DNA of 64,000 bases, taken from positions 102,396 through 166,395 of the forward strand of contig OY969565.1 in NCBI GenBank assembly GCA_963701105.1, read 5' to 3'. This stretch comes from an uncultured Actinomycetota bacterium (GTDB lineage: Bacteria > Actinomycetota > Thermoleophilia > RBG-16-64-13). Below are positions 23,676-40,389 of the stretch, one piece after another. A model generated the notes under the pieces. It made no database searches. It was not told the DNA's origin and saw only the letters and a program-made list of their open reading frames with translations. Numbering within the stretch: the stretch's first letter is position 1; the number at the start of each line of letters is the position of its first letter. Both the position numbers and the translations under genes were made by a program.

Positions 23676-23787
23676 GTAGGATAGTCTACGCCGTCGCCCG
23701 AGTTGCGGCTACCTTCCGGCACCCCCATCGTCTGTTGGCTTGAGATTTGGTGGAAGGTCCGGCAAGAATTGAAAAAGGGGGACTAAA

Positions 23788-23814
23788 GGTACAAAATGGT
23801 CATAATAATGTACC
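23788..23814. promoter_or_regulatory. inverted repeat GGTACA-15 nt-TGTACC upstream of the antitoxin gene (candidate operator)
   Basis: GGTACA at 23788-23793 and TGTACC at 23809-23814 in an AT-rich stretch containing CATAAT/TAATAAT, 23 nt upstream of ATG 23837. Confidence 0.3.
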
Positions 23815-23836
23815 GTTTTGCCTGGGAGGGAGCGCG

Positions 23837-24091
23837 ATGACCACAGTCACCGCTAAACAGCTGAAGGAAGCTTCGGCTGATGTCTTGAGCCGCGTCCAAT
23901 ACGGACATGAACGCATCGTAGTCACGCGTCATGGCAAGGAAGTCGCAGCTGTGGTCTCGATTGAAGACGCTCGTCTGCTTGACCGCCTGCAGGACGTGCT
24001 CGACGTTCATGATGCTCTCGCAGCGATTGAAGAGGCCGAGCGCGAAGGCACAGTCAGCCTCGGCGACTTGCGCAAGAAGCTCGGCCGCTGA
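23837..24091 (+). CDS. type II antitoxin, Phd/YefM family
   Basis: 84 aa from ATG 23837 after GGGAGGG. AKQLKEASADVLSRVQYGHERIVVTRHGKEVAAVVSIED is Phd/YefM-like. Confidence 0.85.
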   Translation: MTTVTAKQLKEASADVLSRVQYGHERIVVTRHGKEVAAVVSIEDARLLDRLQDVLDVHDALAAIEEAEREGTVSLGDLRKKLGR

Positions 24092-24097
24092 CGGTCC

Positions 24098-24394
24098 GTG
24101 GCTTACGAGATACGGATAGCGCCCGCCGCAGAGCGAGCAATCGGGAAACTGTCCGCTCAGATTCAGGTTGCGGTCCTAGAAAAGCTTGAGGAACTCGCCG
24201 AAGATCCCCGACCGCCCGCCTGCGAAAAGGTGAAAGAGCTGGCGCAGTACGGTGTGTTTCGCGTGAAGGTGGGAAAGGACCATCGCATCTTGTACCAGGT
24301 GAAGGACGAGGTCGCCTTGATTCTCGTTGTGAAGGTTGCCGATCGGGAGGAAATCTACCAGCGCCTGGCTGATTTGAAGCGTCTGTTGAAGTAG
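24098..24394 (+). CDS. type II toxin, RelE/ParE family
   Basis: 98 aa, 6 nt after the antitoxin. FRVKVGKDHRILYQVKDEVALILVVKVADREEIY is RelE/StbE-like. Confidence 0.8.
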   Translation: MAYEIRIAPAAERAIGKLSAQIQVAVLEKLEELAEDPRPPACEKVKELAQYGVFRVKVGKDHRILYQVKDEVALILVVKVADREEIYQRLADLKRLLK

Positions 24395-24514
24395 CCCCCT
24401 GTCGGGCGACCCTCCTGCGCCAATGTCCGGAGCCCTCCAGGGGGACGTTCAGTCTGATATTGTCAGCCCAACGTCACCCCACGCGGCGGAGTCATCCGAA
24501 CTAGGCGAGGGATT

Positions 24515-24742
24515 ATGACTTTTGGCGAGTATGCTCTTGCTGCCCTTGTCGCGTTTGGCGATTTCCTGGTCTTCTTGGGCGCATGGCTCATGATGCTCTT
24601 CGCCTGGAGACGATTCCGGACCAGAAAGAAGCGATCCTTATCTAGTTATCTCCTGCTTTTCGCCTTCCCCGTGGGGATGATAATCATTTGGCTCACTGTC
24701 GGTCTCATGTACATCCTCTTCTTTGGAATACCGGAAGGGTAG
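24515..24742 (+). CDS. small membrane protein, two TM helices, unknown function
   Basis: 75 aa. Two hydrophobic helices flank RRFRTRKKR. Lower-GC islet. Confidence 0.45.
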   Translation: MTFGEYALAALVAFGDFLVFLGAWLMMLFAWRRFRTRKKRSLSSYLLLFAFPVGMIIIWLTVGLMYILFFGIPEG

Positions 24743-24750
24743 GTGAATGA

Positions 24751-25665
24751 GTGAGTCAATATGAGATGAATCGCATATGGAGCTGGAGGCCTTCGGTTAG
24801 AGTGAAGATCGTTCTCTTAGTGATCCCGATCGCCCTCGCGGCAGGGTTGGTGCTCGGACAGCACTCGAACGGGTCGGCGTCAGGATCACCGGAGGAGGCC
24901 GTCAGAGTGTATCTGGGTGCATTGGCGAGCGGGGACAAAGTCGCTGCGGATGCTGTGCTCTCCTCGCAAACGAGAGGTCATGCGTCCGAAGCAGAGGAAG
25001 ATGAGGCCTTCAACCTTGGGGGCATTGCAGCCTCCGGGGAGATCTCCGTCAACGGCTCCCGCCCCTTGGATGCAGTCAACGTTCTCGTCAAAGTTGGGTT
25101 CGTCGGCCGCGACGGAACTACTCAGACGCTTGAGATCCCCTCTGCGCTCGAAGACGGGTCGTGGCGGGTGAAGCCGATCACCAAGTCCATGATGACTCGT
25201 AGGCTCGAGGGGCCCTATCCGGCGGAGGCGCAGATGGCCAACGGAACACTGCGCGTCGCGGTGGGAGGGCTTGTGTTCTGGAAAGACCGGCCGTCCATCG
25301 GCCTGGACATCGAAGGAATCAATGTTGACGACAAGGTGATTCAAGTTTCGTGGCGGAAGTTCACAGCCACCCTCTCTGACGGGCAGACAACGTGGGCCGG
25401 AGACGTTTCCGTCTATTCGGACAACAACCCATATGGTCCGCGCGACCCGGCGGATGTCAGTCCTCCTCCTCTTGCTCCGGGGGGCCACATGATCATGCAT
25501 TTCGAGCTGGGCGGCGGGCAGCAACTGTCTGCCTCTGGGCCCTGGGCAGTGACCGTCCGCGACGGCGACGGAGAAACAGCCGAGATGAAGATGGAGCCTG
25601 CCATGTCGGATGCGCTGGTGATGGACCGTTGGCTCACGCTGTCCGGTGAGGAGAAGGCTTTCTGA
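24751..25665 (+). CDS. membrane-anchored hypothetical protein
   Basis: 304 aa. N-terminal TM anchor KIVLLVIPIALAAGLVLG. An EEAVRVYLGALASGD segment resembles DUF4878-type domains. The C-terminal beta-rich half is unassigned. Confidence 0.55.
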   Translation: MSQYEMNRIWSWRPSVRVKIVLLVIPIALAAGLVLGQHSNGSASGSPEEAVRVYLGALASGDKVAADAVLSSQTRGHASEAEEDEAFNLGGIAASGEISVNGSRPLDAVNVLVKVGFVGRDGTTQTLEIPSALEDGSWRVKPITKSMMTRRLEGPYPAEAQMANGTLRVAVGGLVFWKDRPSIGLDIEGINVDDKVIQVSWRKFTATLSDGQTTWAGDVSVYSDNNPYGPRDPADVSPPPLAPGGHMIMHFELGGGQQLSASGPWAVTVRDGDGETAEMKMEPAMSDALVMDRWLTLSGEEKAF

Positions 25666-25908: not shown

Positions 25909-27048
25909 TTGGAGCTTCGCCAGGTCGACCACGCCGCCATCGCTCCGATGCGCGAGCAGAAGCTGCTTCACTATCACCTCCCGTTGCTCCCCGATTTCCA
26001 CACCCATCTCGCTCATCACGCCGAGGCCTGGCAGATCTGGGACGCCGAGAGCGCGGTCGGTTACGTGCTCGCTCTAAGAGAACCGCAGGGAGACCACGAG
26101 CACGTCACCCTCATCGAACTCTTCCTGACCCCGCCCTACCGCGACTCGTACGAGGACGCCGTGGCCGCGACCAGGGATCAGATCGAGCCGCGCGCTTATC
26201 TGGTACGCAGCGACGACTGCACGTACGTGACCGCCCTCCTGGCTTCGGGGTATCAGATGGAGGTGAGCATGGCGGTGATGGCGGCGAAGGTCGTAATGCG
26301 GCCTCAAGAAGAGCACGGTCTGAACCTGACGCCGCTCGACTATCCGCATCTGCGGGCGGCGCACGATCTGTATCTGCACGTGCGGGGAGTGGAGCAGGCT
26401 CCGACCTACTCCGAGTTGGAGGCCCGCATCGAGGACGACGCGCTGTGGGTGCTCACCGACCACGACCAGCCCATAGGACTGGTGGCGAGGGAGCCCAGCG
26501 AAGGGGACCGGTACTGTCTGCTCGATATCATCGCGCCGCACGCCAGGAGGGAAGCGCAGCTGTGGGGACTGCTCACTGCCGGCATCATGATCGACGAGGA
26601 AGGTCGCACGGCGGCGGCGCTCCTGGACATGCGCGATATGGACAAGATCGACGTCTATCGGCTTGCTGGATACTACACGGCTGCGACCTACTTGGTCTTC
26701 TACGACGCGGAGGCCGGCCGCCCCAGCGTGCCCATCATCGAACGAGCCGAGCTGTGGGAGATGATCCAAGCGGACGAGCCCTTCCACCTCATCGACGTGC
26801 TTGGCAAAGAACACTGGGCTGAGGGTCATCTGCCCGGCGCCGAATGGGCGGACTTCAAGAGTCTCGTGAAGAAGATGCGCCGCTACAAGAAGGACGAGAA
26901 GATCGTCCTCTACTGTAACGACTACATATGAGAGGCTTCAGGCATCGCAGCCGATAAGCTGCGACAGTTAGGCTACACCGACGTGTCAGAATACAGGGCC
27001 GGGCTGGACGACTGGGTGAGGGCAGGCCTGCCTGTGGAGAGGGGCTGA
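25909..27048 (+). CDS. selenoprotein: tandem GNAT-like repeats fused to a rhodanese domain with C-x4-U active-site loop (TGA 26929-26931 read as Sec)
   Basis: Track ORF 25909-26931 stops at TGA inside a rhodanese domain. Reading through in frame gives ...HLIDVLGKEHWAEGHLPGAEW...KIVLYCNDYI-U-EASGIAADKLRQLGYTDVSEYRAGLDDWVRAGLPVERG*, the intact C-terminal half of the rhodanese fold. Hairpin 13 nt downstream. The same window carries a Sec-type selD. TTG 25909 start is tentative (ATG 25948 alternative). Confidence 0.7.
26945..26964 (+). promoter_or_regulatory. candidate SECIS hairpin for the rhodanese selenoprotein
   Basis: TCGCAGC-CGATAA-GCTGCGA, a 7-bp perfect stem with 6-nt loop, starting 13 nt after UGA 26929-26931. 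Confidence 0.45.
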
Positions 27049-27423
27049 ATGGGACTCTTTGAGCGCATACTGGGGCGGCGGCCTGCAGATTCGGTCGTCC
27101 TCTACCATTCCCCCACCTGAGGGGACTGCCACGAAGCCAGAAGGTTCTTCTCGGCACATGGAGTACAGGTGGTGGCCCACGACGTCACCGCGGGCGAGGA
27201 GGTGCGACGTCGCATGGAGGCGCAACTCGGGCGGGTGGCCACGCCCGCCATCGTGATCGGGCAGCGCGTGTTCTGGGGATTCGAAGACAACAAGCGTGAT
27301 ATCGCCCAACTCCTGGGAGTCGGCATGGACGCCGACGGGAGCGAGTCTGCGCCCGACGCCGCCGCCTCCGACGTAGCCGGGGCGTCCGATGCCGCGGCCT
27401 CCGATCCTGGGGCACCGTCGTGA
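27049..27423 (+). CDS. selenoprotein: glutaredoxin/NrdH-like protein with U-x-x-C redox motif (TGA 27118-27120 read as Sec)
   Basis: ATG 27049 directly abuts the upstream stop (TGAATG). MGLFERILGRRPADSVVLYHSPT-U-GDCHEARRFFSAHGVQVVAHDVTAGEEVRRRMEAQLGRVATPAIVIGQRVFWGFEDNK has the Grx fold pattern: beta1-CxxC position, cis-Pro TP, GF. Track ORF 27169-27423 is only its C-terminal part. Confidence 0.75.
27136..27155 (+). promoter_or_regulatory. candidate SECIS hairpin for the Grx-like selenoprotein
   Basis: GCCAGAAG-GUU-CUUCU(C)GGC, an 8-bp stem with one bulged C and a 3-nt loop, starting 15 nt after UGA 27118-27120. Confidence 0.4.
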
Positions 27424-28410
27424 CTTCCCTCGTCGACCGTCGCGAGGTGGAGAAACTGCTGGTGCTTGGCGCTGCTCTCCGGGCGGGGCTCGTAGATGCC
27501 ATAGACGTGCCAGGGGGTCGCACTGCGGAGCAGGTCGCGGCGACTGTGGGAGGCGACGTCCACGCGTGCGGGGTCTTGCTTCATGCACTCACCTCGCTGG
27601 GCGTCGCTGAGGAAACAGAGGGATCGTTCAGGTTGACCCCCTTGGGGCGCCTCCATCTCGTCGAGCCACCTCCCGGCGATCCCGTGCCACCGGAGTTAGA
27701 ACGCTCCTCGCTCTTGCACCAACTCCACAAGTTCGGAGGGTGGTTGCGCCTGCCGGAGATCGTGGCCGGCGACCGCGGGCAGTCGCGCGTCAAAGAGCCG
27801 GAACGCCTCCGTTCTTTCGTGCGCACGATGGGGGAGGGCGGTCCCGCCGTGCCGGAGGAAGTGGTCGACGTGGTGTCTGGCGTACGCGAAGGAAGGAAAC
27901 GACCAGCGCGAGCCCAGGGACATGATCGACGTTGGCGGCGCCGTGGGCCATATGGCCCGGGCCTTCGCCGACCGGGGCCTGCGAGCCACGCTCTTCGACC
28001 GGCCCGATGTGCTTCCCGAGGCCCGCGAGTTCCTGGGCGCGGGTGCCGAGGACATAGCCATGGAAGGCGGGGATTTCAACGTCTCTCTGCCCGCGGGCCC
28101 CTTCGACTTGGCCTACCTCGGTAACGTGTACCACATCTACGGGCCTGAGAAGCTTCAGGCGCTCACCCTCCGCGTGTTCCAGGCGCTCCGCCCGGGTGGC
28201 GTGATCTGCGTGCGTGACTACGTGTGGGGGCGGAGCCCGCGGGCAGCCATGTTCGCCGTCAACATGTTGCAGGCGACCGCGGACGGGGGCGTATGGCGTG
28301 ACGACCAGTATCGTGCTTGGTTCGAGGCCGCGGGATTCGAAGACGTGCGCGTCGTCGACTTGGAGCGCTCTCCGAATCAGCTGATCCTGGGTCGGCGTCC
28401 GCCTGCGTGA
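27420..28410 (+). pseudogene. O-methyltransferase (family 2 type: wHTH dimerisation domain + class I SAM MTase), apparent +1 frameshift near 27874
   Basis: Track ORF 27420 (frame 0) encodes the N-terminal domain up to ...PEEVVDVV. Track ORF 27922 (frame +1) extends upstream as ...LAYAKEGNDQREPRDMIDVGGAVGHMARAF...DRPDVL...LRPGGVICVRD (SAM-binding motif). Deleting one nt in GTGTCTG near 27874 restores one ~330-aa protein. GTG 27420 overlaps the Grx-like stop (GTGA). Confidence 0.65.
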
Positions 28411-39321: not shown

Positions 39322-40389
39322 ATGCCGCAGAAGCCACCACGGTTGACTACGCTTTCGCACGGTTCCGGCTGAGCGTGCAAGATCGGCCCCAAGGACTTGG
39401 GGCGAATCATAGCCCAGCTGCCCCCGGCTGATGACCCTGCGCTACTGGTGGGCACCAACACGGCGGACGATGCCGCGGTCTACCGTCTTAGCGACGAATT
39501 GGCCCTGGTGCAGACCGTGGACTTCTTCACCCCGGTGGTGGACGACCCATACGACTTCGGGCGTATTGCCGCGGTGAACGCACTCTCGGACATATACGCG
39601 ATGGGCGCCACGCCCCTCATAGCCCTGAACATCGTCGCGTTTCCGGTGGACATCCTGCCCCTCGACCACCTGGCGCAGATCCTGCGGGGCGGAGCAGACG
39701 TGGCTCGAGATGCGGGCATGACCATCGTGGGGGGGCACACCATCGACGACCGCGAACCCAAGTATGGGCTCGCGGTCACAGGGACGGTGCACCCCTCGGC
39801 TTACGTCACGAACGCGACGGCGAAACCCGGCAACGTGTTGGTCCTGACCAAACCCTTGGGCACGGGCATCGTGGCCACCGCCATCAAACGAGGAGTGGCC
39901 GACCCCGAGGTCGTGGCGGCGGCCACGCGTTCCATGACCGAGTTGAATCGCGACGCGGCCGCGGCCGCCCTGACGGCGGCCGCGGATTCCATGACCGACG
40001 TCACCGGCTTCGGCCTGCTGGGGCACCTTCTGGAGATGTGCGACGGCAGCGCTTTGACCGCCGAGTTGTGGTTCGAGGCCCTGCCTTGGCTCCCCGGAGC
40101 CGTGGACTTGGCCATAAGCGGGGCCGTGCCCGGTGGCACCCGGAGGAATCTGGACTACGTCTCCCCCCGCGTCGAGTGGGGCGACGGCTTCCAGGAGCAC
40201 GAGAAGCTCCTTGCCGCCGATGCGCAGACCTCCGGGGGAATGCTCATAGCAGTGCCGGAGGAGCGGCTGGACTCGCTCCTCGCCGACCTGAAAGCGCGAG
40301 GGACGTCGGCGTGCGCGGTCGTGGGTCGCATGCGCGAGAGGATCGACCCCGCGATCGTGGTGCGTCGCTCCTCCGGCGGGGGAGAATGA
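39322..40389 (+). CDS. selD: selenide, water dikinase (selenophosphate synthetase), selenocysteine-containing form (TGA 39370-39372 = U17)
   Basis: The track starts at TTG 39397, but the frame is open upstream apart from one TGA. ATG 39322 after AAGGAGGG gives MPQKPPRLTTLSHGSG-U-ACKIGPKDLGRII..., which aligns with E. coli SelD RLTQYSHGAGC17GC19K20. Hairpin 13 nt after the UGA. Confidence 0.9.
39386..39403 (+). promoter_or_regulatory. candidate SECIS hairpin for selD
   Basis: GCCCCAA-GGAC-TTGGGGC, a 7-bp perfect stem with 4-nt loop, starting 13 nt after UGA. Confidence 0.5.

Follow-up and report, generated by a model that had tools for sequence, protein, structure and literature searches.

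The stretch of DNA considered here (the window) comprises 64,000 nucleotides of contig OY969565.1 (assembly GCA_963701105.1, forward strand, positions 102,396 to 166,395) from an uncultured Actinomycetota bacterium of the class Thermoleophilia, and it carries a gene for a fusion protein in which a tandem GNAT-fold module at the N-terminus is followed by a rhodanese domain at the C-terminus, with a cysteine (Cys) and a selenocysteine (Sec) in the active-site loop of the latter. This domain organization was confirmed. As shown in Table 1, the gene is read through an in-frame TGA, which is the only one in the frame and encodes residue 341, the frame being otherwise open. A purine-rich Shine-Dalgarno sequence, GAAGGAAGGGG, sits before the TTG start, and the start site is kept in homologues of the fusion gene, which begin with MELRQV or VELRQV. 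The gene is present in one copy in the source genome. The fusion protein is almost certainly a genuine selenoprotein, and the selenoprotein family to which it belongs is previously uncatalogued.

Table 1. Positions in the window of the fusion gene, its parts and the associated genes.
Feature	Positions	Strand	Description and evidence
Whole fusion gene	25909..27048	+	379-aa selenoprotein by TGA read-through; TTG start, final stop TGA 27046-48
GNAT domain 1 (residues 1-126)	25909..26286	+	topology b1-a1-a2-b2-b3-b4-a3-b5-a4-b6; AlphaFold secondary structure, Foldseek
GNAT domain 2 (residues 138-265)	26320..26703	+	degenerate; AlphaFold, Foldseek, comparison with P0137, P0141 and P0145
Rhodanese domain (residues about 279-371)	26743..27021	+	Pfam PF00581; PDB matches 1yt8, 6mxv, 3tp9
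Codon of invariant catalytic Cys336 (TGT)	26914..26916	+	homologue conservation; alignment to solved rhodaneses
Sec codon UGA (U341)	26929..26931	+	TGA in 31/32 species loci, TGT in one; Cys forms P0034, P0043, P0046
Upper hairpin of the Sec insertion sequence (SECIS), UCGCAGC-CGAUAA-GCUGCGA	26945..26964	+	7-bp stem, 6-nt loop, G second in loop
Glutaredoxin-like selenoprotein, 124 aa	27049..27423	+	U24 in SPT-U-GDC, UGA 27118-20, hairpin 27136-55; Pfam Glutaredoxin 51.4 bits
Family-2 (COMT/ASMT-type) S-adenosylmethionine (SAM) methyltransferase	27420..28410	+	start overlaps stop of glutaredoxin-like gene (GTGA)
selD (selenophosphate synthetase), itself Sec-containing	39322..40380	+	GSG-U-ACK, UGA 39370-72; TIGR00476 407 bits vs cut-off 125

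The Selenocysteine Codon and Its Conservation

Around the TGA the translated frame reads ...IVLYC(336)NDYIU(341)EASGIAADKLRQLGY..., which puts the codon five positions downstream of the catalytic Cys, as a first-pass annotation made from the sequence had stated. When one genome per species was scanned, 32 loci were recovered; they belong without exception to Thermoleophilia, Gaiellales or unclassified Actinomycetota metagenome-assembled genomes (MAGs). The aligned codon is TGA in 31 of them and TGT in the remaining one, L044. The frame beyond the TGA is kept at all loci (EAS.IAADKLRQLG[FY]...GG...W) and completes the rhodanese fold. A protein search returned about 65 full-length relatives, nearly all annotated at about 341 aa and ending in ...YCN[DG][YF][TI], while three of them, P0034, P0043 and P0046, read YCNG..C-EA with Cys at the Sec column. 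The same column is filled by Cys outside the family in P0082, P0097 and P0154, in agreement with the first-pass annotation, according to which related YC-x4-C rhodaneses carry Cys at this position. In a maximum-likelihood tree the Cys forms at loci L054, L055 and L044 are each separately nested among Sec forms, and therefore Sec is ancestral, with three independent replacements of Sec by Cys; the Cys form of L054 (L054:2951-4087) uses TGC.

The hairpin downstream of the Sec codon begins 13 nt past the UGA, its loop begins 20-21 nt past it, and it overlaps the codons for I-A-A-D-K-L-R; a lower stem may be formed by pairing of 26934-37 with 26971-74. The loop is CGAUAA in the window (6 nt, G second) and GAUA in most homologues (4 nt, G first), the stem is 7-8 bp across loci, and the general form is UCGCNGC(N)-GAUA-(A)GCUGCGA. 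By itself the hairpin has a minimum free energy (MFE) of -10.9 kcal/mol, and a 47-nt segment has one of -16.3 kcal/mol. Because an Rfam scan of the window at the gathering threshold gave no match, the element was judged by published structural criteria. According to the bacterial SECIS model (PMC13188914), the loop has 3-9 nt, the stem 4-16 bp, a G stands in the first two loop positions, the distance from the UGA is 16-37 nt and the MFE is at most -7.5; the hairpin of the fusion gene agrees with all of these published values. In addition, codons +5 to +12 show frozen synonymous sites, with GAT for Asp+8, AAG for Lys+9 and CGA for Arg+11 in 28 of 28 sequences each and CTG for Leu+10 in 27 of 28, whereas in the remainder of these genes GAC is the prevailing Asp codon and the Arg codons are mixed; this freezing is seen among proteins that are only 35% identical. 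The Cys forms show a gradient of the hairpin, which is complete in L054, has two changes in L055 and is lost in L044.

The intact hairpin of L054, which accompanies a TGC codon, may be described as a 'fossil' SECIS and points to a recent change from Sec to Cys.

An alternative is that TGA 26929 is a true stop, so that the product would be a 340-aa truncated protein or the gene a pseudogene, with the downstream frame kept open by chance. Automatic annotations do end the product of the fusion gene at about 341 aa, and neither tRNA-Sec nor SelB was found in the source assembly (a single 1.34-Mb contig, 51% complete); this absence weighs against a selenoprotein, as does the lack of compensatory covariation in the hairpin, whose helix is too conserved to show any. 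However, termination at this codon would remove half of the rhodanese domain right after the catalytic Cys. In 31 species there is conservation of the 38 codons past the TGA, and these codons yield a complete rhodanese fold; Cys homologues exist at the TGA column, the SECIS is conserved and its synonymous sites are frozen, and a Sec-containing SelD is encoded within the same window. The true-stop reading is contradicted by the downstream conservation, the frozen synonymous sites and the hairpin gradient of the Cys forms, and it is scarcely credible.

Selenocysteine Decoding Machinery and Distribution

The selD product encoded in the window itself contains Sec, which indicates that the source genome decodes Sec. 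Among eight relatives carrying the fusion gene, SelB scores over the cut-off in six, including the closest (G007), and is split in the other two, while tRNA-Sec is present in seven of the eight. More widely, of 61 genomes of the GTDB family 43 carry tRNA-Sec, three of them from the same genus. The module itself is present in 31 of 301 genomes sampled across the class, all 31 within the GTDB family of the window; the fusion family is thus confined to one GTDB family of Thermoleophilia.

The Tandem GNAT Module

An AlphaFold run on a 44-sequence alignment (predicted local distance difference test, pLDDT, 91; predicted template modelling score, pTM, 0.71) gave a model with two complete GNAT topologies followed by the rhodanese domain. 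In a Foldseek search against the PDB the top matches were tandem GNATs, namely 3iwg (E 7e-14, target TM 0.78), VipF, glucosamine N-acetyltransferase, MshD and 2wpx, with a probability of 1.00 to many tandem GNATs. The GNAT-like fold that had been called by eye for residues 1-280 is thus found over residues 1-268. The Colwellia protein 3iwg (of unknown function), the mycothiol synthase MshD (1ozp/2c27), VipF and the clavulanic-acid protein 2wpx share with the fusion protein two GNAT folds per chain (Foldseek E 7e-14 to 2e-8), but the identity is 10-14%, and the fusion protein differs in having no Gly-rich loop, in a HxGHxH...E and RSDDC cluster of its own and in the appended rhodanese domain. 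The first-pass annotation had also proposed an internal duplication. This holds at the level of structure, as the residues that it had paired, 50-78 and 189-214, are beta3-beta4-alpha3 of the two GNATs and are exactly the pair recovered by the best hhalign alignment of the two halves; at the level of sequence the duplication is not detectable, the hhalign E-value of 0.23 being not significant.

The Pfam match to a GNAT model in the fusion protein, Acetyltransf_19 at residues 29-118, stays below its cut-off (13.8 bits vs 23.8, E 0.068), and a profile of the module matched only 31 proteins among 1.84 billion representatives. These include distant stand-alone relatives of 270-290 aa, which pass the Pfam cut-offs for both Acetyltransf_19 and Acetyltransf_1, and P0137, P0141 and P0145 among them retain the RGxGxG coenzyme A (CoA) loop as RGRGYG or RGRGVG. 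The gene context of P0137 yielded no information. In neither GNAT domain of the fused family was the Gly-rich acyl-CoA loop (Q/R-x-x-G-x-G/A after beta4) found: the position reads LTPPYRDSY in GNAT 1 and IAPHARREAQ in GNAT 2, both without Gly, and IAPHARREAQLW stands in place of RGxGxG in GNAT 2. The fused family conserves R15, F30, H60, H63, H65, E70, R100, D102, C104 and E118, the HxGHxH...E and RSDDC cluster being specific to it; judging from the order of secondary structure elements, these residues, on alpha1/alpha2, beta4, the beta5-alpha4 turn and beta6, would line the cleft of GNAT 1.

These features bear on whether the protein could be a redox-regulated acyltransferase, in which the tandem GNAT would be catalytic and the Cys/Sec rhodanese would act as an on/off redox sensor. 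The GNAT fold with its conserved cleft, the stand-alone relatives, which look active by their Acetyltransf_1 scores above cut-off and their RGxGxG loop, and a gene neighbourhood related to redox stress are all compatible with such a role. However, both GNATs of the fused family are without the Q/R-x-x-G-x-G/A loop, the Pfam GNAT score is well short of its cut-off, and Sec as a mere sensor residue would be unusual, which makes this role very unlikely. The earlier description of the module as acyltransferase-like therefore holds for the fold, while an acyltransferase role is unproven, the canonical acyl-CoA Gly loop having been lost.

The Rhodanese Domain and Its Active-Site Loop

Pfam Rhodanese (PF00581) matches residues 280-371 with an E-value of 1.7e-14 and 54.6 bits against a gathering cut-off of 22.2, in line with the earlier assignment of the C-terminal ~95 aa to this domain. 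In HMMER alignments C336, which is invariant in the family, falls on the catalytic Cys of 6mxv and 3tp9, and U341 falls inside the active-site loop, which is two residues longer than in these two structures and than the canonical C-x-x-G-x-R-S; an alignment placing the TGA outside the loop had been named beforehand as the result that would speak against the original proposal. The canonical six-residue cationic loop, C-x-x-G-x-[RT], is absent. Instead, the loop C336-N-D-Y-I-U341-E (N-D/G-x-x-U-E) is acidic, and Arg and Lys are missing from it. C-x4-C loops occur in unrelated rhodaneses, namely P0082 and P0097 (a CBS fusion, an ArsR fusion) and the stand-alone P0154. A word search with the domain alone, aimed at stand-alone rhodanese relatives, yielded only 2 matches. 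These ArsR-rhodanese and CBS-rhodanese fusions and P0154 have the same YC-x4-C spacing and a similar helix after it, but they carry Cys in place of Sec, have other partner domains and are about 30-40% identical over the domain.

Comparison with Known Rhodanese-Like Selenoproteins

It has been reported in a 2026 review of selenoproteomes (PMC13188914) that rhodanese-like selenoproteins occur in five forms, with the motifs UxxS, UxxG, CxU (NF041203, 'LYCAU'), again UxxG, and UxxxxU (TsoB). Sec-containing rhodaneses were therefore already known, as the first-pass annotation had noted, and its impression that the fusion had not been described agrees with the same review, in which neither a GNAT fusion nor a C-x4-U motif is mentioned. 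What the known forms and the present one have in common is a PF00581 domain with Sec in or beside the active-site loop; the present form differs in that the catalytic Cys is kept with Sec at +5 (C-x4-U), in the GNAT fusion and in a range limited to one family. With TsoB, a rhodanese/DsbD-like selenoprotein, it shares the x4 spacing between redox residues, which in TsoB takes the form UxxxxU.

The fusion protein scores below the cut-off of every NCBIfam selenoprotein model. Membership in NF041203 (rhodanese_LYCAU), the best NCBIfam match, is rejected by a score of 48.6 bits vs 115 and by the motif, which is C-x4-U and not CxU; similarly, membership in the TsoB family (NF045694) is rejected by 35.2 bits vs 805 and by the absence of a DsbD-like part. 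The fusion protein thus represents a sixth, architecturally distinct form of rhodanese-like selenoprotein, in a phylum with little documented Sec use. It also exposes a systematic annotation error, as public records end the fusion gene at the UGA, and its Cys-x4-Sec loop, together with three separate Cys variants, one of them with a 'fossil' SECIS, amounts to a natural experiment on Sec at the presumed resolving position beside a catalytic Cys.

Gene Neighbourhood

The ATG of the glutaredoxin-like selenoprotein gene abuts the stop of the fusion gene, and from this layout the two genes are probably co-transcribed and translationally coupled. The glutaredoxin-like gene is found at 11 loci, at 8 of which it has a TGA with a hairpin and at 3 a TGY without one. 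It has been proposed for a Clostridium selenoprotein pair of glutaredoxin and MsrA that the Sec-containing UxxC glutaredoxin is the reductant of the other selenoprotein (Kim et al. 2011, cited in PMC13188914). Both cases have a Sec-containing UxxC glutaredoxin encoded beside another selenoprotein, but the partner here is a rhodanese fusion, the pairing exists in one clade only, and the reductant role would be assigned here by analogy.

The methyltransferase gene lies directly downstream at 33 of the 34 loci that have sequence there, often with a stop/start overlap, the exception being L054. Its family has SAM motifs, an invariant catalytic His238 and several conserved Arg, and no invariant Cys was found in it; the nearest solved relatives, at low similarity, are natural-product and hydroxyindole O-methyltransferases (OMTs). 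This fixed linkage, together with a second selenoprotein in one clade, makes a small operon that is open to biochemistry. Most loci also have a gene for a flavodiiron protein after these, frequently accompanied by rubrerythrin, DUF2769 and an NAD(P)H oxidoreductase.

Frameshifts in the GNAT part of orthologues were observed at L027, L043, L045, L047 and L048, all from MFD long-read MAGs; these are probably long-read indel errors, and the same may apply to the single-contig genome of the window.

Proposed Catalytic Mechanism

Taken as a whole, the protein probably acts as a Cys/Sec selenenylsulfide redox or sulfur-relay enzyme. In this mechanism C336 and U341 would work as a redox pair, alternating between the thiol/selenol state and a selenenylsulfide within the same molecule: C336 would accept the oxidising equivalent, which could be sulfane sulfur, giving a persulfide, or come from a peroxide, giving a sulfenate; U341 would resolve the C336 adduct, and the S-Se bond would be re-reduced by the UxxC glutaredoxin-like selenoprotein where it is present and by a different thiol system in the other cases. 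The GNAT module, with the His/Glu/Asp/Cys cluster in its cleft and without the Gly loop, would most likely be a substrate- or metal-binding part and not an acetyltransferase; the downstream methyltransferase probably acts on the same small molecule, and the operon would belong to an O2/peroxide-defence cluster with rubrerythrin, the flavodiiron protein and the NAD(P)H oxidoreductase. The redox pair is proposed because C336 is invariant with Sec and Cys alternating at +5 in the same loop, because C-x4-C in other rhodaneses and UxxxxU in TsoB have this spacing, because the loop is non-cationic, a UxxC selenoprotein is adjacent and the neighbourhood is one of O2/peroxide defence, and because there is a proposed precedent for a Sec-containing glutaredoxin reducing another selenoprotein. 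Taken together, these points favour an oxidoreductase of thiols and selenols, or an enzyme that resolves persulfides, over a thiosulfate sulfurtransferase of the classical kind.

Several observations on the neighbouring genes count against this proposal. The glutaredoxin-like gene is limited to one of the two major clades, that of the window (11 of 33 loci), and the protein therefore cannot be a universal reductant. Compared with the intact orthologue L018:1822-2811, the methyltransferase gene in the window has one extra nucleotide near 27866-27868 that splits it; the gene may be a true pseudogene, or the break may stem from a sequencing error. The linkage to the methyltransferase could also be due in part to shared ancestry, all members being in one bacterial family.

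In a second explanation, considerably less likely than the redox enzyme, the protein would be a sulfur or selenium carrier, in which the rhodanese loop passes a persulfide or perselenide to a molecule in the GNAT cleft and the methyltransferase S- or Se-methylates the product, thereby forming a methylthio or methylseleno metabolite or converting surplus sulfide or selenide to volatile compounds. Rhodaneses are known as selenium carriers, and selD lies 12 kb away in the window. The constant position of the methyltransferase immediately downstream (33 of 34 loci) would be accounted for, its His238 and SAM motifs are invariant and its conserved Arg could suit an anionic substrate, and amino-sugar or thiol metabolites are ligands of the tandem GNATs MshD and glucosamine N-acetyltransferase. 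On the other hand, the acidic loop offers no Arg or Lys to hold thiosulfate or selenite-type anions, the Cys-form locus L054 is without the methyltransferase, the methyltransferase differs from ArsM-type metalloid methylases in conserving no Cys, and selD is not adjacent in other loci.

A broader formulation, put forward here as speculation, is that the protein is a new selenoenzyme whose Cys/Sec loop moves sulfur, selenium or oxidising equivalents at a site for a metal or a substrate within a repurposed GNAT cleft (HxGHxH...E, RSDDC) and which would form, with the methyltransferase, an undescribed pathway; one conceivable example, just as tentative, is a methylated thiol or selenol metabolite made or turned over for oxygen defence in anaerobic Thermoleophilia. 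An arsenate-reductase reading (Acr2-type, with the glutaredoxin and an ArsM-like enzyme) was also considered and rejected, as the loop contains no Arg, no Cys is conserved in the OMT and family 2 is not the ArsM type.

Other Observations

In a related genome, two adjacent 'AhpC-TSA' open reading frames (ORFs) at L015:2503-3219 (+), and likewise in L016, together make up a single peroxiredoxin whose peroxidatic residue is encoded by an in-frame TGA (FTFV-U-PTE). This Sec-containing peroxiredoxin is of a known type, and its gene precedes that of the rhodanese fusion by 3 kb; the source genome, which is half-complete, yielded no copy.

In the window, ORFs at 23747-25665 have a GC content at third codon positions (GC3) of 0.56-0.70, compared with about 0.8 in their neighbours, and include a 304-aa ORF without a Pfam match; the segment may be an inserted islet between an ADP-ribosylglycohydrolase gene and the selenoprotein operon. 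In L013 a BrnT toxin gene occupies the corresponding position.

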